Below, in pieces: positions 28,941 to 46,938 of a stretch of 64,000 nucleotides of DNA. Position 1 is the first letter of the stretch, and each line of letters opens with the position of its first letter. Source of the stretch: Thermoanaerobaculia bacterium (GTDB lineage Bacteria > Acidobacteriota > Thermoanaerobaculia > Multivoradales > JAHEKO01); assembly GCA_049664225.1 (NCBI GenBank), contig JBATEX010000114.1, positions 56,351 through 120,350 of the forward strand, given 5' to 3'. A program made the translations under genes and the position numbers. The notes under the pieces are model-generated. The model was given only the letters and a program-made list of their open reading frames with translations, did not search any database and had not been told where the DNA came from.

Positions 28941-30845
28941 GTGGGATCCAGGATTCTCCGATTCATGCTGGTCGCCTCCCTTGGTGGGGGCGCGGCCTTT
29001 CTCGTATCGCCGGCACCATCAGCAGGCGCCGATGCGCCGATGTGCCTCGACTGTCACGACACCGATGTCGATGCGTTCGCTGAATCCGTTCACGGCTTCG
29101 CGGAGTGTCTCGACTGCCACGTGGGTGCCGACTCGGAAGACCACCCGGAAGTTGGCACGAAGGCCGACTGCACAGGCTGTCATGAAGGGGAGGTGGAACA
29201 GCACCATCTCAGTGTGCATGGTCGGATGGAGGCCTCCGGTCGACTTCCCGGCAATGGTGGCTGCGGCAGCTGTCACGGCGACATTCATACTCTTCTACTG
29301 CACGAAGATCCGGCGTCGGCGACCAATCCGCTTAGCATTGCCGGCACCTGTGGTAGCTGTCACTCCGATCCTGATCTGGCAGCCGATCTCGGAATCCGCC
29401 TCGTGCAGCCGATCGAGGCGTACAGCGAGAGCGTGCATTCGCGAGCCGTCCAGCGGGGTGTCAAGGCGGCCACTTGCTCCGAGTGCCATGGGACTCACGA
29501 CATCCAACCGGCTGCGAGGGTGGATTCAAGAGTCCATGCCGACAAAATCCCCCAGACCTGCGGCAAATGCCATGGCTCGGTGACCGCGGTTTTCAACGAG
29601 AGCGTCCATGGCCGGGCCGTGGCGCACGGCCTGGAGGATGCTCCGACCTGCACCGACTGCCATGGCGAGCACCGCATTTTGGAACCCAAGCGCGGTGACT
29701 CCACCGTCTATCCGACCAACCTGCCGAAGATGACCTGCGGCCGCTGCCACGGTGATCTGGCGCTGTCCGACAAGTTCGGGATGGAGGAGGACAAGGTCCC
29801 GGCGTACGAAGACAGTTACCACGGCCTGGCTTCCCGCTCCGGAAACGTCGTTGTGGCCAACTGCGCTTCGTGCCACGGCGTGCATGACATCCTGCCTTCG
29901 ACTGACGAGAAGTCGCATACCTTCCCGGATAATCTGGATGAGACCTGCGGCCAATGCCATCCGGGCGCCGGCGAGCGGTTCGCCATCGGCGCAGTGCATG
30001 TGCTGCCGGATGAGCCAGAGCACGCGGCCGTCTACTGGGTCCGCAAGATCTACCTCTGGCTGATCTTTCTCACGATTGGCGGGATGCTGCTGCACAACGC
30101 TCTCGACTTCTACCGGAAGCTCCGGCATCCGTTGCCTCGGCCCTCGGAGCAGGTGGAGGATGCGGTCGAGCGAATGTCGGTGGCGGGTCGCATCACTCAC
30201 GGCCTGTTGGCGGTGAGCTTTATCATCCTGGTCCACACCGGATTCGCACTCAAGTACCCCGAAGCGTGGTGGGCCTGCCCGTTGCCCTTCTTGAAGGGAT
30301 TCTGTGAGCTGCGAGGCTTGATCCACCGCATCGCTGCGGTGGTGATGATTCTCGCTTCGGTGATGCATGTCATCCACTTGATGGTCGATCGCAGGGCCAG
30401 GACCCTGATGAAGGGCATGATTCCCCAGCTCAGCGATCTGCGCGACCTGAAGGGCAAGTTCGACTATTTCCTCGGGCGCACCAAACATCCTCCGAAAGCA
30501 GAGTGGTTCAGCTACCCGGAGAAGATGGAGTATGGAGGGGTCCTGTGGGGCACGTTTGTAATGGCGGTGACAGGAGTGCTCCTCTGGTTCGAGAGCATCA
30601 CGCTCCGGTTCCTACCGAGTTGGACCCTGGATGTGGCGACCACGGTCCACTTCTACGAGGCGATTTTGGCGACTCTCTCAATTGCCATCTGGCACTTCTA
30701 CCACGTGATTTTCGACCCAGCAGTCTATCCAGTGGATACTGCTTTCCTGACCGGCGAGTCGCCACCGATTAGGAACCTCGAGCGCAATCCACCGAAGCTG
30801 CCTGAAGACAAGGATCACCCCCACGCCCCGGCGCATCCAGCGTAG
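28941..30845 (+). CDS. CbcL-like fusion: 11-haem cytochrome c N-domain plus a dihaem cytochrome b (FdnI/HydC-like) membrane domain
   Basis: GTG start after GGAGGGGGG, then a signal peptide. I count 11 CxxCH motifs. The C-terminal half has 4-5 TM helices with conserved His (LHNALDFY, ITHGLLAV, VMHVIHLM, WHFYHVIF). Confidence 0.8.
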   Translation: MGSRILRFMLVASLGGGAAFLVSPAPSAGADAPMCLDCHDTDVDAFAESVHGFAECLDCHVGADSEDHPEVGTKADCTGCHEGEVEQHHLSVHGRMEASGRLPGNGGCGSCHGDIHTLLLHEDPASATNPLSIAGTCGSCHSDPDLAADLGIRLVQPIEAYSESVHSRAVQRGVKAATCSECHGTHDIQPAARVDSRVHADKIPQTCGKCHGSVTAVFNESVHGRAVAHGLEDAPTCTDCHGEHRILEPKRGDSTVYPTNLPKMTCGRCHGDLALSDKFGMEEDKVPAYEDSYHGLASRSGNVVVANCASCHGVHDILPSTDEKSHTFPDNLDETCGQCHPGAGERFAIGAVHVLPDEPEHAAVYWVRKIYLWLIFLTIGGMLLHNALDFYRKLRHPLPRPSEQVEDAVERMSVAGRITHGLLAVSFIILVHTGFALKYPEAWWACPLPFLKGFCELRGLIHRIAAVVMILASVMHVIHLMVDRRARTLMKGMIPQLSDLRDLKGKFDYFLGRTKHPPKAEWFSYPEKMEYGGVLWGTFVMAVTGVLLWFESITLRFLPSWTLDVATTVHFYEAILATLSIAIWHFYHVIFDPAVYPVDTAFLTGESPPIRNLERNPPKLPEDKDHPHAPAHPA

Positions 30846-30916
30846 AGGGTTGAGGCAGCCGGGCGTACCTTCGGCTGGTCTCTGGGGCTTGAGTCCTGGG
30901 TCCTGAGATTGTGAGT
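30846..30916. repeat. family A repeat unit (minus orientation)
   Basis: GGGTTGAGGCAGCCGGGCGTACCTTCGGCTGG...GGGGCTTGAG shares the GGGCTTGGGGGTTGAGGC(A/G)GCCGGC core. Confidence 0.6.
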
Positions 30917-30950
30917 CAGCCGGCAGGCTTGCCGGCTGCCCTACCTTTTT
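30917..30950 (+). terminator. candidate intrinsic terminator after the CbcL-like gene
   Basis: CAGCCGGCA-GGCTT-GCCGGCTG hairpin followed by CCCTACCTTTTTGG. The U-run is displaced 7 nt from the stem. Confidence 0.35.
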
Positions 30951-31048
30951 GGATAGCTCGGAGTCCCCACCCAAAGGACAGCTCTCGGAGGGCCGCAGTG
31001 CTGTAGTCTTCTCGGGTCACCGGACCGACCGGGGAGGAGGAGTGATCC

Positions 31049-31516
31049 ATGGCCGAGGAATCGACTCGCGACGACCTGCCGGAGCTGAGCCCGGGGAGGC
31101 GGAAGTTCCTGCAGTGGCTGACCGGAGGATTCCTCTCCCTATGGGGTGTCGGGTTCCTTTGGGTCATCACCTCGTTTCTGAAGCCTCCACAATCCAAGAG
31201 CAGCATCGCGGAGAGGGTGATCAAGGTGGGGCCACTGGACGATCTGCCTGTTGGTCAGGCCCGCCTGGTCAGAAGGGGTCGAGAACCGATCTGGGTGATC
31301 CGGCCCGACGAGGAGAATCTCGTGGCCCTGGCCGGTGTCTGCACACACATGCACTGCGTGCTCGACTGGGACCCCAAGCAGCGATCGCTCGACTGCCCCT
31401 GCCATGAAGGGGCCTTCGACCTCAATGGCAACGTGCTCAAAGGGCCACCGCCGCAGTCCTTGCGCCGCTACCGTGTCGAGACCCGTCTCGGCGAGATCCA
31501 CCTTCACGTTTCTTGA
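31049..31516 (+). CDS. Rieske [2Fe-2S] subunit of a bc-type complex (Tat signal)
   Basis: RRKFLQWLTGG twin-arginine motif. Rieske boxes CTHMHC and CPCHEG. RBS GGAGGAGG. Confidence 0.9.
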   Translation: MAEESTRDDLPELSPGRRKFLQWLTGGFLSLWGVGFLWVITSFLKPPQSKSSIAERVIKVGPLDDLPVGQARLVRRGREPIWVIRPDEENLVALAGVCTHMHCVLDWDPKQRSLDCPCHEGAFDLNGNVLKGPPPQSLRRYRVETRLGEIHLHVS

Positions 31517-32652
31517 GGAGCTGGACGATGAAACAAGAAAAGTCTGGCGCCCTGGACTGGTTCTCTCGCCGTTTGAACCTGACCGAGATTTTCTCGCTCT
31601 TGACGAGCTATGGAGTTTTCCATGCCGAGCTGGACAGTCGCAAGAACATCCGCGAAGCCATCGCGGAGGCGAAGGCCCAGCCCATGCCTTCCTACGACCA
31701 GTGGCCGAGAGTCCTCGGGCTCCTCGCTGTGGTCCTGCTGCTCATCGAGATCGTGACCGGCTCGCTGCTGGCGTTCTACTATCTGCCGACACCGCAGACC
31801 GCGAGGGCCAGCGTTGCCACGATCCTGCGCGACGTGGACTTCGGCCGCTTCGTGCATCAGATTCACTTCTGGGGTGCGCAGCTCCTGATCGCTGTCCTGA
31901 TTGTCAGGGTCGTGCGCTTTTTGATGAGGGGGGTCTACCGCAAGCCGCGCGAGCTCATGTGGATCTTCGGCGTGCTCCTGCTCCTGGTCTGCTTTCACTC
32001 CGACCTGACCGGCAAGGCGCTGCCGATGACCGGTACCGCGTATTGGTCATCGGTGCGGGCTCTCGAGCTGGTGGGCAGCATCCCCATCTACGGTTCCGTA
32101 ATGCTCTTCCTGCTTGGAGGTGGGGAAACGGTGATTACCGAGCTCACCCTGATCCGCTTCTATCTGCTGCACGTCGCGCTATTGCCGTTCGCCGCCATTA
32201 CCCTCATCTACCTGCACTTCTCCGGCGTCAGGAGGCTGGGCCAGACGGAGACCGGGAGCCATGAGACGCCGACTCGCGGCGGGCCGGTGATTCGAATTCA
32301 TCTGCTGAATCAGGCGATTCTGTTCACCATCCTGCTCGGAATTCTCGTCAGTTTGGCAGTTTTGGTTCCCTTTCCGCTCGGCGACGCGGCCGATCCCTAC
32401 CTAACCGTGCCGGGTGTGGGTCCGCCGTGGTATCTGCTCGCGCCCTTTGGCTTCATGGAGCTGACGGCTCCGTTCTTGCCGACCTGGATCGGCGGGACCA
32501 TCCTCTTTTTCACCTTCACGGCTTTCGTGCTGCTGCCTTTCCTTCCTGGATTCCGCGAGGGCGCGAGGAGCCGGGGCCTGAGCTGGGTCATCGTTGCCGC
32601 CCTGCTCGCGGTTTGGATCTTCCTGACGATCTATGGAGCGAGGGTCGCATGA
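31513..32652 (+). CDS. cytochrome b subunit of the bc-type complex
   Basis: ...FVHQIHFWGAQLLIAVLIVRVVRFLMRGVYRKPRELMWIFGVLLLL... His-containing helices typical of cytochrome b/b6. The ATGA overlaps the Rieske stop. Confidence 0.9.
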   Translation: MRSWTMKQEKSGALDWFSRRLNLTEIFSLLTSYGVFHAELDSRKNIREAIAEAKAQPMPSYDQWPRVLGLLAVVLLLIEIVTGSLLAFYYLPTPQTARASVATILRDVDFGRFVHQIHFWGAQLLIAVLIVRVVRFLMRGVYRKPRELMWIFGVLLLLVCFHSDLTGKALPMTGTAYWSSVRALELVGSIPIYGSVMLFLLGGGETVITELTLIRFYLLHVALLPFAAITLIYLHFSGVRRLGQTETGSHETPTRGGPVIRIHLLNQAILFTILLGILVSLAVLVPFPLGDAADPYLTVPGVGPPWYLLAPFGFMELTAPFLPTWIGGTILFFTFTAFVLLPFLPGFREGARSRGLSWVIVAALLAVWIFLTIYGARVA

Positions 32653-33875
32653 GACCACCAAGACGAGCGCAGCTGACCGACGGGTTGATCGCCGGGCTGA
32701 TTGGGGCGCTATGGACCCTGGCGTCCGTTCCGGTGTCCGCCCAGGAGATGTGTGGGACCTGCCACCCCGAGAATCGTGTGAGCTTCGAGCAGAGCATCCA
32801 TCACCTTGAGAACGTGAGCTGCAGCGACTGTCATGGGGGAGACCCGGCAGCCCGCGAAGTGAAGGCAGCCCATCAGCGTGACTTTCGCAGTCTGTCCGAT
32901 CGGCTCGAGGTGCCGCAGATGTGTGCATCGTGCCACGCCGACCTGGATCAGATGCGGGCCTATAATCTGCCTGTCGACCAGTACGCGGTCTACCTGACGT
33001 CCCAGCACGGCAAAGCCCTGGTCGCGGGTGAGACCAGGGCGGCGATCTGCACCGACTGTCACGGCGGGCACGATATTCGGCGCCCCCGCGATCCATCTAG
33101 CTCGGTCCACCCGAGACACATTCCAGAGACGTGCGGTCAATGCCACGGAAATGAAGCCCTGATGCAGGAGTTCGGGCTGGACCCCAACGTGGTGACGGAC
33201 TACCGCTCCAGCATTCATGGTCGTATGTTGCTCGAGGAAGGTTCCCTGGCGGCGCCCAACTGCACGAGTTGTCACGGGGTCCACGGCGCCACGCCACCGG
33301 GTGTCGGAGACATCGACAAGGTCTGCGGAGCCTGTCACGAGCAGACGAGACGGGCCTTTCTGGAGGGTCCTCATTACGAGGGGATGACAGCCGCGAGTGT
33401 TGCCGAATGCGCCTCGTGCCATTCGAATCATGCCATCCAGCAGTTCGGCATCGAGCGAGTCGAGTCACTCTGCGCCGAGTGTCACGGTGAGGGCTCCGAT
33501 CAAGCCGTCCTAGGTCACAAGATCCATGCCCTGATCGACTCGGCCGGCGAGGAGGTTGCCGCAGCCGAGGCGTTGGTGCGCCGGGCCGACCAGGCCGCGC
33601 TCGAGGTGGAGGATCCGTTGAGCCGGGTGGAGGAGGCCAAGACCTATCTGACCGAAGCCTTGCCGGCCGTGCATTCGGTTTCCCTGGAGCCAGTCGAGCA
33701 GCTGACCCGTCGTGCCCAGTCCATCGCCGAAGAGGTCGAGCACGAGCTCTACTCGAAGCTGGACCGACGAGTCGCCAAGATCGGCCTGGTGCTTTTCTGG
33801 TTCTACCTGCTCATGACGATCGCGGTGCTGGTCATCTTCAGGCGCCGGCTGCGGTCCGAGACGGAGGCTTCATGA
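32650..33875 (+). CDS. membrane-anchored 9-haem cytochrome c subunit
   Basis: Start MRPPRRAQLTDGLIAGLIGALWTLASVPVSA. I count nine CxxCH motifs. C-terminal TM helix IGLVLFWFYLLMTIAVLVIF. The start overlaps the cytochrome b stop. Confidence 0.85.
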
Positions 33876-35566
33876 AACTAGGGCGCTTCACGGTTGCCGG
33901 CTACGCCATCGGCCTGATCTTGGGGATCGGCATCGTCGCCACTTATGGGGCGATGCATATGAGCTCGACGCCGAGCTTCTGCGGCAGCTGCCACGTCATG
34001 TCTCCCTACTACGAGTCATGGGCCGAGTCTTCCCACGCCAACATCAACTGCGTGGATTGCCACATTTCCCCCGGCATCACTCAGGAGCTGCGCAAGAAGT
34101 ACGAGGCGATGGCCATGGTGGCCCGCTACTTCACCGGCACCTACGGCACCAATCCGTGGGCAGAAGTCGACGATTCGGCCTGTCTGGAGTGTCACGAGCG
34201 ACGCCTGCTCATGGGGCGGGAGGTTTTTGGCGATGTCCTATTCGACCACGGACCTCATCTGAGCGAGCTGAGGCGGGGCAAGCGTCTGAAGTGCACGTCC
34301 TGTCACTCACAGATCGTGCAAGGGTCTCACATGACGGTCACCGCCACGACCTGCACGCTCTGCCACTTCAAGGGGCAGCAGCCCGGTGAAGGGACGGCTC
34401 GCTGCACGCTCTGTCACCAGGTGCCTGATCGGGTGCTCTCGGCAGGAGGGTTGGACTTCGACCACGGTGACGTCGCTCGCTTCGGCATGGAGTGCAATAC
34501 CTGCCACACCCCCCCCGATCCCAACGCCGGCCGCGTCCCCAAGGAACGATGCCTGACCTGCCACAACGAGCCGAGCCGACTGGCCGAGTACGAGAAGGGC
34601 GACCAGTTGCACCAGACCCACGTTACGGATCACAAGGTGGAGTGCACTCATTGCCACCTGGAAATCGAGCATGTGGCGCCACGACATCTGGAGGCGGCGC
34701 AGAGCGAATGTGGCTCCTGCCATGGTGGGGGTCACTCACCGCAGCGCGACCTCTACGCCGGTCTGGGCGGCAAGGGAGTCGATCCTCGCCCGGACGTGAT
34801 GTACCTGGCCGGTGTGCGCTGCGAGGGCTGCCACCTGGATCACGGGAGCGGCGAGACGGCCCTCGCCGGCGAGATCTCCTGCATGAGCTGTCACGGCCCC
34901 AAGTATCGCCAGATCTTTGAGAACTGGCAGGCCACGATTGCCGAAAGAGCCTCCGGCATGCGGCGACAAATAGACAGCACCGCCCGGCTGCTCGGTTCTG
35001 AACCGCCGGCAGCTTTCGAGAATGCTGTCATGAACCTCGAGCTGGTGGAGCGGGGCAAGGGAATCCACAATGTGCCTTACAGCGTTGCGGTGCTCGAGGC
35101 CGCGCACGGACAGATCAACCGGGCGCGCGCCGAGGAAGGCTACGCCAAGCTGTCGACGCCGTGGCCCACCGCACCCTACGCATCGGATTGCCTGGAGTGC
35201 CACGCTGGGGTTGAAGCGTTGCAGGTGAGTGTCTTCGGTGGAGGCTTTGCTCATGAGCCGCATGTAGTGGGACAGGGGCTCGATTGCCAGGAGTGTCACT
35301 CCACACACGAAGAGAGAGACACCCAGGGTATGGGGCCGCTGAAGATCCAGTCCTCGTCATGCAACAGCTGTCACCACAGCGATCCCGCGCGCGATTGCGC
35401 GACGTGTCACGGTAACGTAATGGAGCGTGCCTTGAGCACCGACCTGGGCGACTTCGAGCACGCCTTCCATGTCGGTGACCTGGAGATCGGCTGCACCGAT
35501 TGCCACGGCGAAGCCCCGAATTTGCAGGCCTCACCCGACTTGGAAGTCTGCTCTGACTGCCACTGA
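33872..35566 (+). CDS. NapC/NirT-family N-terminal module extended to an ~18-haem cytochrome c
   Basis: N-terminal TM helix plus CGSCHVMSPYYESWAESSHANINCVDCH, the NapC/NirT/NrfH hallmark. I count 18 CxxCH motifs in total. The start overlaps the upstream stop. Confidence 0.8.
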   Translation: MKLGRFTVAGYAIGLILGIGIVATYGAMHMSSTPSFCGSCHVMSPYYESWAESSHANINCVDCHISPGITQELRKKYEAMAMVARYFTGTYGTNPWAEVDDSACLECHERRLLMGREVFGDVLFDHGPHLSELRRGKRLKCTSCHSQIVQGSHMTVTATTCTLCHFKGQQPGEGTARCTLCHQVPDRVLSAGGLDFDHGDVARFGMECNTCHTPPDPNAGRVPKERCLTCHNEPSRLAEYEKGDQLHQTHVTDHKVECTHCHLEIEHVAPRHLEAAQSECGSCHGGGHSPQRDLYAGLGGKGVDPRPDVMYLAGVRCEGCHLDHGSGETALAGEISCMSCHGPKYRQIFENWQATIAERASGMRRQIDSTARLLGSEPPAAFENAVMNLELVERGKGIHNVPYSVAVLEAAHGQINRARAEEGYAKLSTPWPTAPYASDCLECHAGVEALQVSVFGGGFAHEPHVVGQGLDCQECHSTHEERDTQGMGPLKIQSSSCNSCHHSDPARDCATCHGNVMERALSTDLGDFEHAFHVGDLEIGCTDCHGEAPNLQASPDLEVCSDCH

Positions 35567-36158: not shown

Positions 36159-39131
36159 TTACTTGTAGCCGAAGAGCATGGTGTAGATGATCAAGAAGAT
36201 CAGCGCCAGACCGATGAACAGCGCGGTGAATCCGAACACCTTGACCGGCTTCTCCAGGTAGGAGGGGATGGGCTCCACGATGTGCTCTTCCAGCGTGCCA
36301 TCTTCGACCAATCGCTCGTACTCGCCCGGCTTGTCGTACTTGAGCTCGTCGACGGTCATGCGCCCCGTGAAGATCACCGGATCCATTGGGAACTTGTCCG
36401 GCCGGAAGTGGGTGTTGAAGAAGTGGATGGTGAAGATGAAACCGGTAGCGAGGAGCGCCTCGTCACTGTGAATGATCGTGGCGACGTTCACGGACCAGCC
36501 TGGCAGGATACGGGTGAAGAACTCTGGGAACCAGAGCAGCAATCCGGTGCCGCCAATGATGATGATGCCCCAGAGCACGGCGAAGTAGTCGAACTTCTCC
36601 CAGTAGGTATAGCGGCCATACTGCGGTCTCGGACCGATCCCGAAGAACCACTTGATGGACTGGACGAACTCCTTGGCATCTCGGGTTGTGAAGAGAATCG
36701 AGGTCGGCCCCGTGACGACCTCCTTCCAGGACATGCCCTTGGTCTTCTTGTCGTGGAGGACGTACCAGAGATGGAGGAGAAAGACGACGAAGAGGAGCAC
36801 AGCTCCCATGCGGTGCAGTACGCCTGTCACGCCGAAGCCGCCGAGCAGGCGAGCCAGGCCCTGCGCCCAGCTCATGTAGGAGAACTTCAGCGCCATGCCC
36901 GTGAGCGACAGGGTGAAGAAGCTGACCAGCATGGTGAAGTGCAGGTGCCGATTGAAGCGCGTGAACCTGCGGAACAACGGCTTGTGATCGGGTTCGGCCA
37001 ATGCCCTGTGCGCCCTCCACTCGTCGCGGGACAGATACAGCCGCACCAACCAGGCGAGCGTGTGGAGCATGGCGAAGGTCAGCGTGCCGACCAGCAGGAT
37101 GGTCATGAACCAGAAGGACCAGAAAAGCCATGGGTAACGGTCGGGATCGTGGTGCGTGGCGTGGGTCAGGTAACCTGCGAAGCGCCTGTTGGACCCTGCG
37201 TGGCACTCGCCGCAAGTTTCCACCACGTGGTTGCGACCCAGGGCCGAATCGGGATTCGAAGTCGGCAGGATGTTGTGGGTTCCGTGACAGTCGTAGCACT
37301 TGGCGGCACCGGCCGATCCGAGGCGAGAGACCTTGCCGTGGAAGGTATCGAAGAAGGTCCCGGCTTCCTCCTCGTGGCACTTGCCACACTGATCCATCAT
37401 GGTGAAACGGAAGTCATTCAGATCGTGGCGCGAGATGGTGTGGGCGGTATGGCAGGAGATGCAGGTCGGGCGCTCGCGTCCTTCCTCCAGCTCTTCACCG
37501 TCTTCCTGAGGCCAGTGAATGCTAGTCCTGAAGGTCTCGGCGATGCCATGGTGGCACTGGGCGCAGGTCTCGGCCACGTTGTCGTGATGGATGGTAGAGC
37601 GCTCGTCGTCGGGAGGCAGCTCACGATGGGGACTGTGACAGTCACTGCAAGTTGCCGTGACCAGAAGTCCGCTTTGCAATAGGCCCCTGCCGTGGATGCT
37701 GTCTACATAGCTGTCGACAATGCTGTCGAGCTCGGTTTCGATCCGGACCTCGGCCTGGCCGCCTTCCCGATGGCACTGAGCGCACAAAGCGGGAACGTTG
37801 CTGGGGAAGGTCGGCGAGGTGGGTACGGTCATCTTCTGGATGTCGTGCTGACCATGGCAGTCCAGACAGTAGGGAGCGTCGGGGTCACCCTGCGCGTGGA
37901 GGGTGCCGTGCAGTCCAAGCTCATAGTCGGCCACCGGTTCGGCGTGGCAGATGCTGCAGTCGACCTTGGACTCGATCGTCTCGCAGGCTCGTTCCCGTGA
38001 TGTGGTGACCTCGGTGTGGCACTGAGCGCAGGCAACCGTGGCGTGCGCCGTAGTGCTGAAGCGGTCTTCATCGACGGTCAGCGAGATCGTCTCCCCGTTC
38101 CGTTCCATCGTCAGATCGGGCTTGCGATGGCAGGTCAGACAGTCCTCGTTGGCCATGCCAGCCGGATAGAACACGCGACGGATCCTGTGAGGTGAGTGGC
38201 AGTCGACACAGGCCGGGATCTTGTGGGGCTCCTCTTCCCAGAGACGGCCCTCGATCACTTTCTGGTGAACTCTCTCGATCTGCCCATGGCATTGCGTGCA
38301 GGTGCTGGCGATGTTGTCCCGGTGAATGCTCGAGGCCGGGTCGGTGTGGGGCAAGATGTCGTGCGCTGTGTGGCAGGAGGTGCAGACCGCTGTGACCGTC
38401 AGGCCCTGCTGGAACAGGCCCTCGCCATGAATACTCATGGAGTAGTGCTCGAGGATTCGCTCCTGGTGGATCTCATGGGTCTGCGTGACCTCCGTGCCCT
38501 CCTGGTGGCACTTGCCGCACAGCATCGGGATATTCACCACGGAGATCGGGGAAGTCTCGTCGGACGACGGTCGGATGTCGTGGCTGCCGTGACAGTCGCC
38601 GCAGAGCGGTGCCAACTCGTCGCCCCGCGCCGCCGCCTGACCGTGCAGGCTGCGTTGCTGCTCGGTTACCTGGCGACGGTGACAGCTGGCGCAGTTGGGT
38701 ATCTTTTCGGAGACGAAGCCGATGTCGTGTTTGCCATGGCAGTCACCGCAGTCGGGGGCCCATTGGCTGTCGGTGGCTCGAAGTCGGCCATGGCTCCCTG
38801 TCTCTATTTCGGAGACCGGACCGTCGTGGCACATACCGCAGTCCACCGGTTCGGGCTCGATCTCGTCGTCATGAAAGCCGTCGCCGGCCAGGTCGGCATG
38901 GCAGTCGACACAGGTCATGTCGCCATGGACCGAGGAACCGTAGGCCGACTCGTCTACGAAAACCGAGATCTCTTCACCATTACGGCTGCCTGTCAGGTCG
39001 GTGTCCGAATGGCACCCCAGGCAGTCCTCGGCCTCCTGGGCTACTGCCGGAGCCAGACAGGCGATCAGTCCCAGTCCTAGCGACAGGAAGAGGACGCGGT
39101 GAACGAGTCGGGAGCGAGTTGGGCCAGACAT
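36159..39131 (-). CDS. CbcL-like fusion: ~21-haem cytochrome c plus a dihaem cytochrome b membrane domain
   Basis: Signal peptide MSGPTRSRLVHRVLFLSLGLGLIACLAPAVAQ. I count 21 CxxCH motifs. The C-terminal ~330 aa have FdnI/HydC-like helices with His (AMLHTLAWL, NRHLHFTML, VTGVLHRMGA, HLWYVLH, IIHSDEALL, TIHFFNTHF). Confidence 0.8.
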   Translation of the reverse strand: MSGPTRSRLVHRVLFLSLGLGLIACLAPAVAQEAEDCLGCHSDTDLTGSRNGEEISVFVDESAYGSSVHGDMTCVDCHADLAGDGFHDDEIEPEPVDCGMCHDGPVSEIETGSHGRLRATDSQWAPDCGDCHGKHDIGFVSEKIPNCASCHRRQVTEQQRSLHGQAAARGDELAPLCGDCHGSHDIRPSSDETSPISVVNIPMLCGKCHQEGTEVTQTHEIHQERILEHYSMSIHGEGLFQQGLTVTAVCTSCHTAHDILPHTDPASSIHRDNIASTCTQCHGQIERVHQKVIEGRLWEEEPHKIPACVDCHSPHRIRRVFYPAGMANEDCLTCHRKPDLTMERNGETISLTVDEDRFSTTAHATVACAQCHTEVTTSRERACETIESKVDCSICHAEPVADYELGLHGTLHAQGDPDAPYCLDCHGQHDIQKMTVPTSPTFPSNVPALCAQCHREGGQAEVRIETELDSIVDSYVDSIHGRGLLQSGLLVTATCSDCHSPHRELPPDDERSTIHHDNVAETCAQCHHGIAETFRTSIHWPQEDGEELEEGRERPTCISCHTAHTISRHDLNDFRFTMMDQCGKCHEEEAGTFFDTFHGKVSRLGSAGAAKCYDCHGTHNILPTSNPDSALGRNHVVETCGECHAGSNRRFAGYLTHATHHDPDRYPWLFWSFWFMTILLVGTLTFAMLHTLAWLVRLYLSRDEWRAHRALAEPDHKPLFRRFTRFNRHLHFTMLVSFFTLSLTGMALKFSYMSWAQGLARLLGGFGVTGVLHRMGAVLLFVVFLLHLWYVLHDKKTKGMSWKEVVTGPTSILFTTRDAKEFVQSIKWFFGIGPRPQYGRYTYWEKFDYFAVLWGIIIIGGTGLLLWFPEFFTRILPGWSVNVATIIHSDEALLATGFIFTIHFFNTHFRPDKFPMDPVIFTGRMTVDELKYDKPGEYERLVEDGTLEEHIVEPIPSYLEKPVKVFGFTALFIGLALIFLIIYTMLFGYK

Positions 39132-39406: not shown

Positions 39407-39607
39407 AACCCCTCTAGTCGAACCCTTCATTGCTCACCGGGACTGTATTCCCGTCTCTTGCAAGAACCCGCCAAGGCCCCACTGCCCAGAGATCAGGCGG
39501 AAGGAACGCCTGGACGCCTCAACTTCTCCCGTCGGGTATATTCTGGGGCGACACCGAACCAGGGCCTGCAAAGTGCAGTAGACGACTCCGGACTCGAGCC
39601 AACCTTG

Positions 39608-41725
39608 ATGCTGTTCCTCGGACTCATGGCAGCTGTTGTGGCCTTTGCGGGTAGCGGCCTGGTCGTCTTCATCTTCGTGTCCGAGCGTCTCGCGGGGCGG
39701 GCCATTGCCGTTCGGATCACGACCGCCGTCTGTGCGCTGCTCTGGCTCGCCTTCCTGATCTTCCAGATCCTGGGCCTCCTGGGTGCGTTTCGCCTACCGG
39801 TGGTTGTCCTGCTCTGCCTGGTGCTTCCAGTGCTGGTCCTGGTGCGTTTTCGAGGGAGGGCCGCAGTGGCTCTGCGCGTTGCCGGAGAGGACCTGAAGAA
39901 CGAGCTGGAAGCGATCGGTGCCGGTCTGAAGAGAGAGCCTCTGGTGGCCGCGGGGGTCGGAGTCGTGGCGCTTCACTTGACGGTGAGACTGGCTCGCGTC
40001 ATTGCCACGCCCACCTTCGGCTGGGACGACTTCACCTACCATCTTTTTCGGGCCGGCCGATGGGTGCAGACGGGCGGTGTGGGTCTGGAGCCCGCGCCCG
40101 ACGCCTGGACCTACTACGAGTTCTTCCCGTGGGGAGGAGACGCCGTTTGGACCTGGGCCCTGATCTGGCGGGCAGGTGACGTGCTCGTGCCGATCCTGGC
40201 CATCGGGATCTGGCTGGCGATTCTGGTGGCTTCGTTCGCTCTCACTCGGGCGCTCGGTCAAGGGCCAGTTACCGGACTGGTGGTCGGATTGGCGATCGCT
40301 ACCTTGCCGAGTCAGCTGACGCAGCTCAACACTGCATACGTGGACAACGGCGTCCTCCTCATGGCCTTGATCGCGAGTCTGTGCGTCGTCGACATGGAGC
40401 GGGGCGAAGATCGAAACTGGAGCTGTCTCCTGCTCGGGGCGAGTTGTGGATTGGGTGTAGCCGTCAAGCTCACCTTCTTACCCGTAGCGGCTGCGGGGGC
40501 ATTGCTGACAATCTGGTGGGCTTGGCAGCGGCGCCGGCCAGGTTGCCTCGGGGCCTTTCTCGTCGGGTCGGCGATTGTGCTGCCGAACTGGATCTTCAAC
40601 ATCGTCCACAGGGGCTCGCCCTTCTATCCGTTCAGGGTCGTGGAGTCGCTGCCCTACAACCAGGCTCTCGAGAATCTGCTGTCCGGAGCTCCGGCGAAGG
40701 ACCTGGGCACGGCGCTGGGAGCGGCTCTGAAGGCCCTGCTGATCAACGTTCGGGATGTGGATCCCTTTTTGAATGTCGGCTGGCTGGGCCTCTGCCTCCT
40801 GATCTTGGGGCTGGTGGGTGGTTGGCGCAGATCGAAGGAGATTGGCAGTCCACTCTTTCTGGGCTGGGCGCTGGTCACCGCGGTTTCGGTAGCGGCACCG
40901 GCGCTGGTTGGCAAGGGGGTTCTGCTGCTGGCCCAATGGCTCAATGTGCTCGGTCGATTCTGGGTGCCAGGGTTCGCGGCTCTCTTCGCCTTGGCAGGCT
41001 ATGCGGGAAAACGCCTCGTCCGCTGGACGGTGCTGCCCATTCTGCTGATCGAGCTCTTCGCCTATGCACCTCGCAAGTGGCCCGCGCCGATTCCTGGTTC
41101 CACTCTGCGAGTCTGGCTAGTCGGGTTACTACTGCTTCTTGGTGTCTGGCAGCTCTGTCGTCGGCGGGTCTCGAGCTGGAAGAGAGCGGTGGCTACGGTG
41201 CTGATGGTGACCTTGGCCCTAGTGCTGTCTACGGCGATCCGCGAGGTGACCCGGTACGACTGCTACCGGCTCTTCGCCAACTGGGAGCTGGACGACTTTC
41301 ATCACAACAACTACATTCGTGGTTGGCCGCTGTGGAAGGAGTTGGATGAAAGAGAAGCTCGCACGATCGCTGCAACGGCAGGATTCGGGGGTGGTATTGG
41401 CCATAACTGGTTTCGCTATCCGTTGCTAGGCTCATCGCTGCAGCGGGAAGTCCTCTATATCCCCATCACGACCGATGGCGGGTTGATCAGCTACGAGGAC
41501 TCGGCAGGGGTTGCGGCTGCAGCGGATCGGCGGGCCTGGTTGGGCCGCCTCTTGGACCGGGACGTGGACCACGTGGCGGCGCTGGGTCCTAGAAGCATCG
41601 AGCACGCCTGGGTCGAGGAGTTACCGGAGTTGTTTGCTGTCGAGCTGGAGTCGAAAGGGGGCAGCTGGATTCTTGCCCGAGTCGATCGCAGCTCGCTCGA
41701 GGCGCACCTGAACGCAACGCGATGA
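39608..41725 (+). CDS. large polytopic membrane protein, probable GT-C fold glycosyltransferase
   Basis: About 12 or more TM helices. Acidic DD loop motif (TFGWDDFTYHLF) near the N-terminus. It is followed directly by a polyprenyl-phosphate-sugar synthase-like GT2 gene. The start is placed at the internal Met of the track ORF. Confidence 0.45.
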   Translation: MLFLGLMAAVVAFAGSGLVVFIFVSERLAGRAIAVRITTAVCALLWLAFLIFQILGLLGAFRLPVVVLLCLVLPVLVLVRFRGRAAVALRVAGEDLKNELEAIGAGLKREPLVAAGVGVVALHLTVRLARVIATPTFGWDDFTYHLFRAGRWVQTGGVGLEPAPDAWTYYEFFPWGGDAVWTWALIWRAGDVLVPILAIGIWLAILVASFALTRALGQGPVTGLVVGLAIATLPSQLTQLNTAYVDNGVLLMALIASLCVVDMERGEDRNWSCLLLGASCGLGVAVKLTFLPVAAAGALLTIWWAWQRRRPGCLGAFLVGSAIVLPNWIFNIVHRGSPFYPFRVVESLPYNQALENLLSGAPAKDLGTALGAALKALLINVRDVDPFLNVGWLGLCLLILGLVGGWRRSKEIGSPLFLGWALVTAVSVAAPALVGKGVLLLAQWLNVLGRFWVPGFAALFALAGYAGKRLVRWTVLPILLIELFAYAPRKWPAPIPGSTLRVWLVGLLLLLGVWQLCRRRVSSWKRAVATVLMVTLALVLSTAIREVTRYDCYRLFANWELDDFHHNNYIRGWPLWKELDEREARTIAATAGFGGGIGHNWFRYPLLGSSLQREVLYIPITTDGGLISYEDSAGVAAAADRRAWLGRLLDRDVDHVAALGPRSIEHAWVEELPELFAVELESKGGSWILARVDRSSLEAHLNATR

Positions 41726-41737
41726 GGTGAGGAACGA

Positions 41738-43195
41738 ATGAGCGCAGAGACAACCATGAAGTCGGTTGGCGGCGAAGGCGGGCTCCGCCTGAGTGCCATC
41801 GTTCCTGTCTTCAACGAGCGCTATCTCGTCCTGGAGATGCTCCGAAGATTGCTCGCAGTCTCGATTCCCGGTATTCGTGAGCTCGAGGTCATCATCGTCG
41901 ACGATGCTTCCACCGACGGCAGCGCAGAGATCGTCGACGCGGTGGCTGCCGAGCACCCCGACCGGGTGCGGGTCTTCCATCACGATGTGAACCAGGGCAA
42001 AGGGGCCGCCGTGCGCACCGGCATCGAGGCCGCGACAGGGGATCTCATCGTCTTCCAGGATGCCGATCTCGAATACGACCCGCAAGATCTCGCCAAGCTG
42101 GTAGCACCGTTTCTCGAGGACGGGGCCGATGCGGTATACGGGTCGCGCTTTCTGAGCGCCGACCGTCGTCGGGTCCTTTACTTCAGGCACACACTGGGCA
42201 ATCGGCTGATCACCTTCATGAGCAATTGGGCGACTGACCTGAACCTGACCGATGTCGAGACCTGCTACAAGATGATACGGGGCCCCCTACTGAAGTCGAT
42301 TCCGATCCGTTCCAACGACTTTCGGTTGGAGATCGAGCTCACCTCCAAGCTCGCGAAGCGAAACTGTCGCATCTTCGAGGTTCCCATCAGCTACAGCGGA
42401 CGCACCTATCAGGAAGGCAAGAAGATCGGTTGGAAGGACGGCCTCAAGGCGTTGCTGGCCATTTTTCACTTCTGGATGGTCGACGACCTCTACAAGCAGG
42501 ACGAGTACGGCGGCATGATCCTGCATGCCCTTGAGAGGGCACAGCGTTTCAACGGCTGGATGGCCGACGCCGTGCGCCCGATGCTGGGCTCGCGAGTTCT
42601 GGAGATCGGAGCCGGAATTGGCAATCTGACCTCGCTTCTCGTGCCGAGGGATCGGTATCTCGCCAGCGACATAAATCCCGCCTACTTGGCCTACTTGGAG
42701 AATCTGAGCGTCGGTAAACCCTACCTGGAGGTGGCACTGCTGGACCTCGAGAAAGACGTGGGCTTCGAGACTGTCGGCGGCCGGTTCGATACGGTGATCT
42801 GCCTCAACGTCCTGGAGCATGTCAAGGATCCGGTTGCGGCTTTGCAGCGCATGCGCGAAGCCCTGCAGCCTGGAGGGCGGCTGGTGCTGTATGTACCCGT
42901 TGGCCCGTGGCTCTACTCGAGCCTCGACGAGGCCCTGGGCCACCGCTGCCGATACTCCGCCGAGAGCCTGAAGTCCGAGCTCGAGATTGTCGGCCTGCAG
43001 GTGGAGGAGACCCGGCCCTTCAACCGGGTCTCGGTGCCAGCCTGGTGGTTCAACGGCAAGGTGTTGCGTCGGCGATCCTTCAGCCGCATCCAACTCAAGT
43101 TGTTCGATCTGATGGTTCCGGTCCTGCGCCGCCTGGATCGCTTTCTCCCGTGGCCGAGCCTGGGTCTCATCGCGGTCGCAAAGCGACCGCGATGA
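41738..43195 (+). CDS. fusion of a GT2 polyprenyl-phosphate glycosyltransferase (DPM1/ArnC/GtrB-like) and a class I SAM methyltransferase
   Basis: LSAIVPVFNERYL...IIVDDASTDGS...DADLEYDP are GT2 motifs. The C-terminal half has VLEIGAGIGNLT...VICLNVLEHVKDP...GGRLVLYVP (MTase motifs I to post-I/III). Confidence 0.8.
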   Translation: MSAETTMKSVGGEGGLRLSAIVPVFNERYLVLEMLRRLLAVSIPGIRELEVIIVDDASTDGSAEIVDAVAAEHPDRVRVFHHDVNQGKGAAVRTGIEAATGDLIVFQDADLEYDPQDLAKLVAPFLEDGADAVYGSRFLSADRRRVLYFRHTLGNRLITFMSNWATDLNLTDVETCYKMIRGPLLKSIPIRSNDFRLEIELTSKLAKRNCRIFEVPISYSGRTYQEGKKIGWKDGLKALLAIFHFWMVDDLYKQDEYGGMILHALERAQRFNGWMADAVRPMLGSRVLEIGAGIGNLTSLLVPRDRYLASDINPAYLAYLENLSVGKPYLEVALLDLEKDVGFETVGGRFDTVICLNVLEHVKDPVAALQRMREALQPGGRLVLYVPVGPWLYSSLDEALGHRCRYSAESLKSELEIVGLQVEETRPFNRVSVPAWWFNGKVLRRRSFSRIQLKLFDLMVPVLRRLDRFLPWPSLGLIAVAKRPR

Positions 43196-43549
43196 GGGTT
43201 GAGGCAGCCGTCGCTGGCTCCGGCTGATCTTTGGGGCTTGGGGGTTGAATCGTCCGTCACTGGCTCCGGCCGACCTTTAAGGGCTTGGGGGGTGAGGGGG
43301 CGGCCCGCGCTTCGCCGGACTGATCTTTGGGGCAGTGAGGGAGACCTCGTACGCGGCCTTGCACCCCTAGGCCCTTACGTACCTAAGCCCTTTTTGCCCT
43401 TCCTGCTGCCCTCAACGGTGCCAGGACCTCAAGACCCCAAGCCCTCAAAGGCCGGTCGGACGTACGTCCGAGCGCTTCAACCCCTAAGCCCTCAAAGACC
43501 GACCGGAGGGTACGACCGGTCGCCTCAACCCCCGAAGCCCAGGCCGACG
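43196..43549. repeat. composite family A element at the second convergent junction
   Basis: Same architecture as 35567-36158, with minus-orientation units at 43196-43310 and plus-orientation units at 43430-43545. The inner segment shares GCACCCCTAGGCCCT and CTTCAACGGTGC with 35770-35830. Confidence 0.75.
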
Positions 43550-45277: not shown

Positions 45278-46464
45278 GACTTCCTCCCTTCTATCTGGCC
45301 CTCGACCGGGCCCGCATCGTGGCGCGTTGCCAGACCGAGTAGGAGCATCAGCGCACCAGTGCCGACCACGATGAACAGGGGTGTCAGCGATCGGTACCCC
45401 CAGGCTGTCATGCCCACGATGTACACCAGGGCGAGAATTCCGATGAACGTGAAGGCTGGGCTGCGCCCCGTCCTGTTGACCTTCCCATCCAGGAAGGGAA
45501 CGAGCATCATGAGCAGCCCACCGAGACTGAACAGCAGGATCGGAATCGCCTCGTACTCGATGCCGGCGATCTCCCCTCCAGGGACCAGCTTGAGGGTCTC
45601 GAACATGAACATGAAATACCACTCTGGCCGGATGTCTTTGAAGGCGGGCGCAAAGGGGTCGGCTTTCTCTCCAAGCTCCCATGGCAACAGAGCGGCGATA
45701 GCGGCGAGGACTCCTAGAGCCAGAATCCAGCCCCAGAGATCGCGCATGGCGAAGTCGGGGAAGAACTTCATGGGGCGCTTGCCGTCGGCTTCCTCCTGCT
45801 GCTTCGGCGGCACGCTCATCCCCTGGATCTGAACCAGCATCAGGTGAATCCCGAGCAGCACCGTCGTAATTGCGGGCAGGATCGCCACGTGCCAGCCGTA
45901 GAAGCGCGACAGGGTCCCACCGGTGACCCGGTCACCACCACGCAGGAACCGAAGCGCCCACTCTCCGACGATCGGCACCGCGCCGGCGATATCGGTTCCG
46001 ACCTTGGTGGCGAAAAATGCCAGTTGATTCCACGGTAGCAAGTAGCCCGAAAAGCCGAAGGCCATGGCGAGGAAAAGCAGTAGGCAGCCGGTGACCCACG
46101 TCATCTCACGAGGCTTGCGGTAGGACTTCGTGAAGTAGACGGTGGCCAGATGGACGAAGGCGAAGAAGACCATCAGGTTGGCCGACCACGAGTGGAGCGA
46201 ACGGATCAGCCAACCGAAAGGCACCACGGTCATGATGAACTCCACCGACTCGAAGGCCTCCTCCGCCGATGGTCGGTAGTAGAGCATCAGCATGATTCCG
46301 GTCACCACCTGGATGACGAAAAAGAACATGGTCATGCCGCCCAGGTAATAGAAGACCGAGAGTCGGTGTGCCGGCACCGTCTTGTGTGCGGCGAACTCCT
46401 GGGCCTCGGCCACCGGCAGGCGGTCGTCGAACCAGGCGCGGACGTTTCGAGCGAGATTTTTCAT
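45274..46464 (-). CDS. cytochrome b (b6 plus subunit IV-like, long form) of the second bc-type complex
   Basis: ...[56 protein letters not shown]... are classic cytochrome b motifs. Confidence 0.9.
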
Positions 46465-46467
46465 GGC

Positions 46468-46938
46468 TCAGGCTCGCGAGACGACGATGGTTTGGGGTTG
46501 ACCCGAGCCCTTGAAGACCAGGTCCACTTTGAAGGGCTCCAGCGGCTTGGGCGGCGGACCGGCGACGACTTGTCCGTGGAGGTTGTACTCACCGTTGTGA
46601 CAGTTGCACCAGATTCGCTGCTTGTCCTTCTGAAATTCGACAATGCAGTCGAGGTGCGTGCAGGTCCCCGCGAAGGCCCGGTACTCGGTCTCGGAGAGGC
46701 GCACCAGAATGACCGGATCGGCACCGAATCGCACGATCTTGAAGCCCTTCTCGAGGAGCTCTGCATCGTTCGTGGGGCCGGCCTCCACCTGATTGGTGCT
46801 CGCCTCGGGAACTTCGGGTGGGCTGACGAACCGGAGAACTGGATAGAGGACTGCGACAGTCAGAGCGCCTGCCGCCGTGCCGAGGAACCAGTTCAGGAAC
46901 CGTCGGCGCGAATTGTCGGAAGGAGTTGTCTCGGTCAT
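46468..46938 (-). CDS. Rieske [2Fe-2S] subunit (Tat signal) of the second bc-type complex
   Basis: RRRFLNWFLGTAAGA. Rieske boxes CTHLDC and CNCHNG. Confidence 0.9.
   Translation of the reverse strand: MTETTPSDNSRRRFLNWFLGTAAGALTVAVLYPVLRFVSPPEVPEASTNQVEAGPTNDAELLEKGFKIVRFGADPVILVRLSETEYRAFAGTCTHLDCIVEFQKDKQRIWCNCHNGEYNLHGQVVAGPPPKPLEPFKVDLVFKGSGQPQTIVVSRA

Follow-up and report, generated by a model that had tools for sequence, protein, structure and literature searches.

Within a stretch of 64,000 nucleotides from a Thermoanaerobaculia bacterium (hereafter the window), some 18 kb encode two multihaem c-type cytochromes fused to haem-b membrane domains and two Rieske/cytochrome b operons, raising the question of whether these genes represent two parallel sets of quinol oxidoreductases, as a preliminary description had it, or a single respiratory assembly of unlike parts, and of where electrons leaving (or entering) the quinone pool through them would travel.

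Nine genes in one conserved island

Open reading frames and haem-binding motifs were recomputed, and domains were called with Pfam at the gathering threshold (GA) and with NCBIfam at its curated cutoffs. The features, grouped as modules A to D, are:

28941-30845, plus strand: A, CbcL-type fusion, 634 aa, 11 CxxCH motifs
31049-31516, plus strand: B1, Rieske [2Fe-2S] subunit, anchored by an N-terminal transmembrane (TM) helix (PF00355)
31513-32652, plus strand: B2, atypical cytochrome b of b6-like type with a fused subunit-IV-like part, 379 aa, about 7 TM helices
32649-33875, plus strand: B3, 9-haem c-type cytochrome, 9 CxxCH, signal peptide, C-terminal TM anchor
33872-35566, plus strand: B4, 18-haem c-type cytochrome with a NapC/NirT/NrfH-type module, 18 CxxCH, N-terminal TM helix
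36159-39131, minus strand: C, CbcL-type fusion, 990 aa, 21 CxxCH
46938-46468, minus strand: D1, Rieske [2Fe-2S] subunit, TM anchor of PetC type (PF00355, TM_PetC)
46464-45274, minus strand: D2, b6-like cytochrome b of canonical type with fused subunit IV, 396 aa
45277-43550, minus strand: D3, 11-haem c-type cytochrome, 11 CxxCH, signal peptide, C-terminal TM anchor
28716-28748, plus strand: terminator-like hairpin with a stem of 15 bp and then a T-rich tail

The CxxCH counts of the preliminary description (11, 21, 9, 18 and 11) were exactly reproduced on recounting, and its concern that one copy might be a frameshifted pseudogene finds no footing in the reading frames, all nine of which are free of frameshifts and internal stops. 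All haem motifs of the nine genes are of the plain CxxCH form. Their number is constant among orthologues (A, 11 in 9 loci; C, 21 in 6 loci; B3, 9 in 16 loci; B4, 18 in 14 loci; D3, 11 in 2 loci, L010 and L011), so the pattern is not a chance clustering of motifs. Every NCBIfam match of these genes falls under its curated cutoff, and no equivalog-level assignment is therefore made. Module C, for which no strand had been given, lies on the minus strand; homologues suggest that the true start of B2 is the ATG at 31528, yielding 374 aa, while B3 starts at 32649 and D3 at 45277, each overlapping the stop of, and translationally coupled to, the preceding cytochrome b gene. The hairpin stands between A and an upstream CydA-like gene pair, and none comparable was found in the gap between A and B1 (30845-31049).

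The window as a whole holds 111 CxxCH motifs, and also encodes a weakly MtrB/PioB-like beta-barrel protein together with 6- and 26-haem proteins. A porin-cytochrome-like cluster is located at 453-9528 of the window, the island has as neighbours a tetrahaem protein resembling c554 and a CydA-like cytochrome c fusion, and PFOR, fumarase and ordinary heterotroph-type genes are encoded elsewhere in the window.

The 'two sets' first proposed are better described as one conserved island with the order A, B1-B4, C, D. Identity between paralogues is approximately 30% (C/A, 30%; B1/D1, 30%; B3/D3, 35%), whereas each copy is 55-99% identical across the class, with fixed haem counts, among 17 Thermoanaerobaculia species genomes; this pattern argues for an old conserved island and against recent duplication, in agreement with the divergence initially suspected. 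The genes B1-B4 form an invariant unit in 20/20 loci, with four genes and 9 + 18 haems kept even at 41-46% identity; A is adjacent to this unit in approximately 12 loci and C in approximately 9, while in L010 and L011, where D2 has orthologues of 77-79% identity, D is the immediate neighbour of C. The B unit adjoins a canonical Rieske/cytochrome b operon in L066, a distant locus, and lies approximately 2.3 kb from one in L067. The window is 94.6% nucleotide-identical to, and colinear with, a Thermoanaerobaculia MAG contig. On comparative sequence grounds, the 18-kb region is part of an old respiratory gene island conserved across Thermoanaerobaculia.

Two CbcL-type fusions and two Rieske/cytochrome b complexes

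The CbcL-type architecture previously put forward for both A and C, a secreted multihaem c domain with a C-terminal FdnI-like b domain, holds on closer comparison. Module A consists of a signal peptide, an 11-haem periplasmic c domain and 5 TM helices, namely an additional helix (TM0) and then a four-helix FdnI-like dihaem-b domain (Ni_hydr_CYTB, PF01292, 53.7 bits, above the GA of 30.1; TIGR01583, E 1e-12). Module C consists of a signal peptide, a 21-haem periplasmic c domain and 6 TM helices with an FdnI-like dihaem-b core; PF01292 reaches only 22.7 bits, under the GA of 30.1, and TIGR01583 an E of 4.9e-9; across 595 aa, C and A share 30% identity (E 2e-66). In an AF2 model of C residues 656-990 (pLDDT 83.5), the membrane domain matched a single PDB chain significantly, FdnI 1kqf_C, at E 1.7e-4 and a target-normalised TM-score of 0.76. 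The TM counts derive from a simple hydropathy scan, in which the C helix bearing His888 and His903 fell under the threshold and was assigned by inspection; published forms of the family include 4 and 5 helices.

All four haem-b His ligands of FdnI are kept in both fusions. In A, the residues aligned with FdnI His18, His57, His155 and His169 are His420, His462, His570 and His585, each present without exception in 119/119 homologues, with His385 (TM0) and His476 (TM2) likewise invariant or almost so; in C, His690, 731, 773, 787, 888 and 903 are invariant in all 119 homologues compared. The CbcL His pattern of Joshi et al. (2021) is thereby reproduced in A (His385, His420, His462, then His570, His585) and in C (His690, His731, His773, then His888, His903). 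More than 7,992 homologues of A were found, with 11 haems in 113 of 118 full-length sequences, and the C family comprises at least 4,668 matches, mostly with 19 or 21 haems; the haem counts and lengths of A and C fit within the range of 3-23 haems and 416-1034 aa published for the CbcL/MtrH/MtoC family (Zhong & Shi 2018). Judged by architecture and His pattern, with GSU0274 compared by its published description, A and C are classed as CbcL/MtrH/MtoC-type fusions.

Both Rieske/cytochrome b operons reported earlier, with multihaem cytochromes in place of c1, were recovered (B, 9 + 18 haems; D, 11 haems), although the conservation of the four haem-ligating His residues, anticipated for all b-type domains, holds for A, C and D2 and fails for B2. 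Within D, the Rieske protein D1 (PF00355, E 4.7e-13; TM_PetC, E 3e-9) has the cluster-binding boxes CTHLDC and CNCHNGEY; D2 (Cytochrome_B, PF00033, E 1.8e-52; cytochrome b6 model NF002990, 236.8 bits against a cutoff of 325) reads H-H-T-H-H, retaining all four His ligands, with the Qo motif PEWY; and D3 is anchored by a TM helix at residues 549-567. These features identify D as a predicted canonical b6-like Rieske/cytochrome b complex with an 11-haem c subunit.

Module B departs from this pattern in its cytochrome b. B1 (PF00355, E 2.4e-15; boxes CTHMHC and CPCHEGAF) lies directly upstream of B2 in every locus extending far enough. In a gap-free HMMER alignment of B2 (PF00033, E 1.8e-36) with cytochrome b6 (7r0w_I), Arg132 occupies the position of the helix-B His ligand of haem bH/bn, a ligand usually regarded as invariant and a position held by His in approximately 45 other cytochromes b. 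The four canonical ligand positions plus Arg135 read H-R-R-H-H in 20/20 B2 family loci, with R132 present in 120, H118 and H220 in all, and H235 in 117 of 121 family members. The Qo motif is PPWY (approximately 118/121), lacking the usual Glu, and two haem-packing glycines are absent; Asp164, next to His162, replaces the p-side helix-C glycine, with Asp or Glu at this position in 121/121. Since His235 and Arg135 are mostly kept, haem bH may still bind in a five-coordinate state. Of the two partner cytochromes, B3 sits in the gene position of cytochrome c1/f, its TM helix spanning residues 378-396 after trimming, and B4 (TM helix at residues 6-24) matches NapC/NirT (PF03264, 46.6 bits, above the GA of 24.1) and NrfH (TIGR03153, E 5e-16, its 59 bits not reaching the equivalog cutoff of 134), its first haem motif CGSCHVM conforming to the pattern CG[ST]CH[VY]M (the CxxCHxM form) found in 16/16 loci. 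Module B is apparently an undescribed Rieske/cytochrome b variant, predicted to be without normal haem bH ligation.

Proposed role and alternative readings

The favoured reading, to which a probability of approximately 0.7 is assigned, is that of a conserved island with four quinone-to-multihaem modules, of which B is divergent, feeding or draining a multihaem network. The four would be independent inner-membrane modules, each joining a quinone-binding haem-b membrane part to periplasmic multihaem c-type cytochromes. In A and C, the FdnI-like dihaem-b bundle would exchange electrons with menaquinol/menaquinone, and electrons would cross the membrane to the 11-haem (A) or 21-haem (C) periplasmic chain. 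Module D would be able to run a proton-motive Q cycle, delivering electrons to its anchored 11-haem cytochrome. Module B, with the Rieske cluster and haem bL kept, the normal bis-His ligation of haem bH absent, Pro in place of the Qo Glu, and two anchored cytochromes (9-haem and NrfH-type 18-haem), would most likely oxidise quinol without a canonical Q cycle. The modules would differ in the energy conserved and in operating potential, and would feed (or, reversed, drain) a periplasmic and outer-membrane multihaem network, for example the cluster at 453-9528, serving extracellular or periplasmic electron acceptors; potential tuning and an extracellular destination are both plausible.

The opposite direction of flow, in which the modules work mainly in electron uptake, from Fe(II), reduced humics or a syntrophic partner via the multihaem chains to the quinone pool, with B operating 'uphill', is considered unlikely. 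FdnI itself is a quinone reductase, and the bc1 complex of A. ferrooxidans runs in reverse. In the survey by Kao & Hunte (2014), the PPWY motif seen in B2 is documented as a rare Qo variant, otherwise known from that A. ferrooxidans complex, and a related APWY clade contains a G. metallireducens complex with a proposed reversed Q cycle; CbcL/MtrH/MtoC homologues, moreover, occur in Fe(III) reducers and Fe(II) oxidisers alike, with no sequence feature that tells direction (Zhong & Shi 2018). A reversed Q cycle would, however, need haem bH, the normal ligation of which is missing from B2, and the window offers no pointer to chemolithoautotrophy, its PFOR, fumarase and heterotroph-type genes being found instead. 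Uptake is also disfavoured by the physiology of Thermoanaerobaculum aquaticum, to our knowledge the only cultured relative, which lives as an anaerobic heterotroph and reduces Fe(III) and Mn(IV).

Somewhat less probable again is respiration of soluble periplasmic acceptors (nitrite, other N-oxides, or sulfur and selenium oxyanions) in place of extracellular electron transfer, with the long multihaem subunits serving as periplasmic wires or catalytic reductases. In its favour stand the NrfH/NapC-type module of B4, of a kind characteristic of nitrite and nitrate respiration, and the best match of B2 among the NCBIfam cytochrome b models, ExtP, which is named for a selenite/tellurite-reduction operon. 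Anammox bacteria possess Rieske/cytochrome b complexes with multihaem partners, and the c554-like protein and CydA-like fusion beside the island point the same way. Across the 20 loci, however, neither the island nor its immediate flanks contained a catalytic subunit (NrfA, HAO-type CxxCK haem or molybdoenzyme), and both the uniformly plain CxxCH motifs and the porin-cytochrome-like cluster of the window weigh against this reading.

That B2 is a decaying or non-functional paralogue of D2, and the second complex a relic, as the missing haem ligand, Qo Glu and glycines might suggest, is very improbable and contradicted by the conservation data, namely intact B reading frames, orthologues 55-99% identical in 17 species genomes, the essentially invariant R132, H118, H220 and acidic residue 164, and a four-gene unit with 9 + 18 haems maintained at 41-46% identity, a pattern indicating purifying selection on a changed function, with Arg132 a conserved clade trait and not a product of gene decay.

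Comparison with known systems

The preferred assembly of four quinone-to-multihaem modules has counterparts of varying closeness. The Geobacter Cbc3/4/5 complexes, offered as comparators in the preliminary description, resemble it, as does Cbc6, in that electrons leave the quinone pool through a membrane-bound cytochrome of b type paired with multihaem c-type cytochromes of the periplasm. As analogues, however, Cbc3/4/5 are poor, since a Rieske subunit is nowhere mentioned in the Geobacter Cbc literature retrieved. CbcB is of hydrogenase type and not PetB type, and against the ExtP model (NF040969, PetB-like cytochrome b), which we take to represent the Geobacter Cbc6 cytochrome b, B2 (155.5 bits) and D2 (222.8 bits) both score under the cutoff of 290 bits.

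Other counterparts concern individual parts. Fusions A and C share with CbcL (GSU0274, Cbc1) and MtrH/MtoC an N-terminal periplasmic multihaem c domain joined to a C-terminal FdnI/HydC-like b domain, but have 11 and 21 haems where CbcL has 9; the hydropathy scan gives A 5 TM helices and not 6, both families have a sixth TM His that is invariant or almost so (His476 in A, His787 in C), and their genes are linked to Rieske/cytochrome b operons, a linkage unreported for Geobacter. With E. coli FdnI (formate dehydrogenase-N gamma, 1kqf chain C) they share the four-helix dihaem-b fold, all four ligands aligning at 16% identity; they differ in an additional TM helix before the bundle (and in C another after it), in a spacing of +15 against +14 for the His pair of the last ligand helix, and in fusion to a multihaem c domain where FdnI docks to an Fe-S subunit. 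The N-terminus of B4, one TM helix followed by a NapC/NirT-type module with CxxCHxM as first motif, recalls NrfH, NapC and CymA; those proteins, however, have 4-5 haems against 18, and B4 stands fourth in a Rieske/cytochrome b operon, with no terminal reductase as neighbour.

A partial parallel to B2 is provided by Pyrobaculum cytochrome b, itself part of a Rieske/cytochrome b system, in which, according to Kao & Hunte (2014), one haem bH His ligand is systematically absent, read there as loss of haem bH; the Pyrobaculum proteins are archaeal, lack the helix-D His and have no multihaem partners, whereas B2 lacks the helix-B His. In that survey, all other sequences without any of the four His were dropped, a filter by which the bacterial B2 clade would be excluded.

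In layout, D and, in outline, B correspond to the b6-type Rieske/cytochrome b complexes with multihaem c (the 'green clade' as well as groups A1/A2 in Baymann et al. 2012; anammox and Firmicute-type complexes). Common to all are the Rieske protein, the b6-like cytochrome b, in which the helix-D His spacing is +15 and a subunit-IV part is fused, and the replacement of c1 by an anchored c-type cytochrome. Genomes with two or more such complexes have already been described, in Acidobacteria as in other phyla. In contrast to those complexes, neither D2 nor B2 has a Cys for haem ci, and B combines the loss of the helix-B haem bH ligand with the possession of an NrfH-type 18-haem subunit.

Gene content and conservation of the cytochrome island

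The island holds four intact membrane modules, in which a haem-b quinone-interacting part is combined with periplasmic multihaem cytochromes: two of CbcL type (A and C, fusions of a multihaem c domain to a dihaem b domain), one canonical Rieske/cytochrome b complex (D, genes D1–D3) and one such complex without normal haem bH ligation (B, genes B1–B4). The haem counts of the preliminary description (11, 21, 9, 18 and 11 CxxCH) were reproduced exactly by ORF listing and motif recount, including those of the multihaem c subunits that it had assigned to both complexes (9-haem B3 and 18-haem B4; 11-haem D3). None of the nine genes is frameshifted, and the sole correction to the gene list places C on the minus strand, so that it converges on B4.

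Multihaem genes of the four modules
28941-30845, plus strand: A, 634 aa, 11 CxxCH
32649-33875, plus strand: B3, 9 CxxCH
33872-35566, plus strand: B4, NrfH-type, 18 CxxCH
36159-39131, minus strand: C, 990 aa, 21 CxxCH
45277-43550, minus strand: D3, 11 CxxCH

The genes B1–B4 are tightly packed, and the starts of B3 and D3 overlap the stop codon of the cytochrome b gene just before each. Searches of Pfam and NCBIfam identified Rieske domains in B1 and D1, cytochrome b/b6 domains in B2 and D2, a NapC/NirT/NrfH module at the N-terminus of B4, and a prokaryotic cytochrome b domain of FdnI/HydC type (PF01292) in A and, weakly and under the gathering threshold, in C; every NCBIfam match of the window genes scored under its curated cutoff, and no gene here is therefore an ‘equivalog’ of a named protein. 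A sigma-70 promoter scan returned chance-level results only and no sigma-54 -24/-12 motif above chance lies near the cytochrome genes, hence operon boundaries are drawn only from gene spacing and one terminator-like hairpin.

Between 26634 and 42863 the window is colinear, at 94.6% nucleotide identity, with a contig from the MAG ‘Thermoanaerobaculia bacterium FCS_M_Acidobacteriota_05’. The B2 family occurs in 17 species-representative genomes, all from Thermoanaerobaculia, unclassified Acidobacteriota or unclassified bacteria, with the next-best cytochromes b outside it at most 41% identical. Across its loci B1-B2-B3-B4 is an invariant unit, directly preceded by an A-type gene in ∼12 loci and adjoined by a C-type gene in ∼9; the D operon begins straight after C in L010 and L011, and haem counts are constant (11, 21, 9, 18, 11). 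Given this linkage, the constant counts and ∼30% identity between paralogues, the two paralogous sets first proposed are real and old, but they form one conserved, jointly maintained island; the same identity rules out recent duplication, in keeping with the divergence initially suggested. In the public loci of two close relatives C is split and B3-B4 fused (L001, 14767-18012 and 11122-13860) or B4 is split (L004, 6905-8853), breaks that are most likely assembly frameshifts of those records; the window copies of C, B3 and B4 are intact.

Upstream of A, a gene pair at 26040-28690 (plus strand) encodes a CydA-like membrane protein, which matches PF01654 weakly and only over its N-terminal part and ends in a mono-haem cytochrome c domain, and, translationally coupled to it, a 372-aa protein of ∼8 TM helices that matches no Pfam family. 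A strong hairpin resembling a terminator (28716-28748) lies between this pair and A. The pair is kept upstream of A in L001, L004, L005, L006 and L009; a divergent c554-like tetrahaem gene accompanies it in the window (25417-25983, minus strand) and was seen also in L001 and L005. Between C and the D operon, 39458-43195 (plus strand) holds two genes of glycosyltransferase type, for a PMT-like 755-aa membrane protein and a GT2-methyltransferase fusion, also present in L001 and L004 and absent in L010 and L011, where D abuts C.

CbcL-type fusion proteins

The CbcL-type architecture originally claimed for A and C is borne out by their domains, their His ligands and published descriptions of CbcL, MtrH and MtoC. 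The two proteins are 30% identical over 595 residues, and a hydropathy scan gives, after the signal peptide and haem-c domain, five TM helices for A against six for C. In an alignment of 118 A homologues, seven C-type sequences (C and six orthologues) and the gamma subunit of E. coli formate dehydrogenase-N (FdnI, the sequence used reproducing the published ligand numbering), FdnI His18, His57, His155 and His169 align with invariant His420, His462, His570 and His585 of A and His731, His773, His888 and His903 of C, the C positions being confirmed on 119 C-family sequences and in a joint A/C alignment; all four expected ligands are thus present in both fusions.

Two further conserved His residues lie toward the cytoplasmic side. 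At the first, in an extra first helix, every C-family sequence and 117 of 119 A-family sequences have His, the remaining two being gapped; the second, in the third helix and 14 residues past the periplasmic-side (bP) ligand, does not vary in either family (119 sequences each). The pair might serve as ligands of a third haem b or make up the quinone site; five candidate His have been counted in published work on CbcL.

Codons of the additional conserved histidines
30093-30095, plus strand: A His385
30366-30368, plus strand: A His476
37062-37064, minus strand: C His690 (equivalent to A His385)
36771-36773, minus strand: C His787 (equivalent to A His476)

A phmmer search of the A membrane domain against PDB sequences gave nothing meaningful, and the link to FdnI was instead drawn from Pfam/TIGRFAM, the FdnI sequence alignment and a fold search, in which an AlphaFold2 model of C residues 656-990 (mean pLDDT 83.5) matched one PDB structure significantly, FdnI (1kqf chain C; E 1.7e-4, target-normalised TM-score 0.76). 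Homologues of CbcL/MtrH/MtoC are described from 15 phyla, range from 416 to 1034 residues and carry 3-23 haem motifs (Zhong & Shi 2018), and metagenomes yield at least 7,992 matches to A and 4,668 to C. Fusions of C type with 19 to 21 haems in MAGs of Woeseiaceae and other Gammaproteobacteria are 60-63% identical to C (P0447, P0450, P0500); such identity across phyla suggests that the C-type gene has moved between them by horizontal transfer.

A cytochrome b without a haem bH ligand

All four haem-ligating His had been expected in every b domain. Complex D conforms: D1 retains both Rieske cluster boxes, D2 (396 aa, b6-like) has four of four ligands, a helix D spacing of +15 and PEWY, and D3 is an 11-haem cytochrome with a C-terminal anchor. 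The expectation fails in B2, where a gap-free HMMER alignment to cytochrome b6 (7r0w_I) puts Arg132 at the second helix-B His position, a ligand of haem bH/bn. Of 121 sequences, B2 and 120 database relatives (≥51% identity), 120 carry Arg here and one carries Gln; the pattern across the four canonical ligand positions plus Arg135 is H-R-R-H-H in all 20 related loci; and when 1.84 billion representatives were searched exhaustively with a profile, the 16 Arg-bearing sequences formed the top-scoring group among the best 150. From these three sources, Arg132 is no error of the window sequence. The second position is His in ∼45 other cytochromes b from the scan that gave the 20 loci and in the D2 orthologues.

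Helix-D His235 is retained in 117 of 121 close-family members, and the helix-D bH His is also lost in four of the 16 Arg-bearing sequences. The close B2 family carries PPWY as its Qo motif and Leu at the second n-side glycine of helix A. In canonical cytochromes b, a glycine of helix C packs against haem bL; the p-side glycine position of this helix (164) is always Asp or Glu in the B2 family, with a near-invariant His162 just before (His162-Ser163-Asp164 in B2, 31996-32004), a pair that may stand in for the missing PEWY glutamate. No substitute fourth His for haem bH was found on the cytoplasmic side of the B1, B3 and B4 TM anchors in a search modelled on CbcA/CbcB and NiFe hydrogenases, the only anchor His being B4 His29 at the periplasmic end, and no conserved Cys for a covalent haem ci occurs in B2 or D2.

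Two Arg-clade members at 41-46% identity to B2 retain the Rieske protein, Arg-type cytochrome b, 9-haem and NapC-like cytochrome, and this Arg-type unit lies immediately beside (L066) or ∼2.3 kb from (L067) a Rieske/cytochrome b operon of canonical type, with four His and PEWY. The survey of Kao & Hunte (2014) treats the four His as invariable, sequences without any one of them having been removed, notes Pyrobaculum as the only systematic exception, and records PPWY in the A. ferrooxidans bc1 complex. A non-exhaustive literature search found no description of an Arg-type bacterial cytochrome b clade.

Roles of the modules and comparison with known systems

The four modules would connect the menaquinone pool to a periplasmic and outer-membrane haem network and would differ in energy conservation: D should be able to run a Q cycle, A and C, by analogy with CbcL, would conserve little energy, and in B a Q cycle is probably absent. 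Nine ORFs of the window carry 111 CxxCH motifs, and the minus-strand genes at 1-9528 look like a porin-cytochrome outer-membrane conduit cluster.

Minus-strand cluster at the start of the window
Window edge, within 1-9528, minus strand: start of another multihaem protein
453-2501, minus strand: 26-CxxCH cytochrome
2434-4179, minus strand: SurA-like PPIase
4179-5252, minus strand: protein without known identity
5275-5889, minus strand: CsgG/LpoB-like lipoprotein
5890-7986, minus strand: 698-aa beta-barrel, weak MtrB/PioB and porin matches
8248-9528, minus strand: 6-haem protein

Regulatory and stress genes also surround the island (10519-13666, minus; 21178-22092, plus; 48219-49142, minus; 49176-51223, minus), encoding a histidine kinase and its partner sigma-54 activator, two proteins with tandem Usp domains, and a GAF/HisKA_3 kinase that has a small gene next to it.

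The motif total and the cluster at 453-9528 lend contextual support to a possible extracellular role; the modules may also run in reverse, taking up electrons, or the island may serve to respire soluble acceptors in the periplasm. That the B paralogue is decaying, with B2 a pseudogene, is rejected, as it is contradicted by the conservation of the B family.

More speculatively, B1-B4 could have abandoned the Q cycle and become an electron-bifurcating device that is driven by quinol and supplies two separate multihaem chains, a reading to which we give roughly one chance in eight. Haem bH would be absent or five-coordinate in B2; the low-potential Qo electron would leave haem bL periplasmically through the anchored NrfH-type B4, while the high-potential electron would reach the 9-haem subunit by way of the Rieske cluster; and protons would be accepted by His162 with Asp/Glu164 in place of the PEWY glutamate. 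Repeated siting near a canonical complex would then mean that the two share the work, one as an energy-conserving and the other as a low-potential exit.

To our knowledge, quinone-pool electron exits at different redox potentials in anaerobes are understood almost only from Geobacter and Shewanella. Thermoanaerobaculia are a widespread sediment and soil lineage, whose fixed toolkit here places two CbcL-type enzymes alongside two Rieske/cytochrome b complexes, a natural system in which to ask whether parallel exits differ in energy conservation. Textbooks assume all four haem-ligating His of cytochrome b to be indispensable; the B-type protein is a test case for this rule, sequences breaking it having been removed before analysis by one large comparative survey, and, if active, the complex would show what a Rieske/Qo site can do without normal haem bH. 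The overall finding is comparative genomics of an ordinary kind; what merits experiment is the conserved cytochrome b with a haem bH ligand missing, together with the NrfH-type partner and the nearness to a canonical complex.

The Geobacter Cbc3/4/5 complexes, earlier put forward as analogues of the Rieske complexes, offer a weak comparison, made by description, since no Rieske protein is mentioned in the Cbc literature searched, CbcB is of hydrogenase type, and B2 and D2 both score under the ExtP cutoff. Published descriptions of CbcL (Joshi et al. 2021; Antunes et al. 2022) fit A and C, a likeness likewise judged by description. A and C are new CbcL-type proteins of already known kinds, D is a conventional Rieske/cytochrome b complex, also of a known kind, and B, judged from its sequences, appears to be a variant of such complexes undescribed so far.
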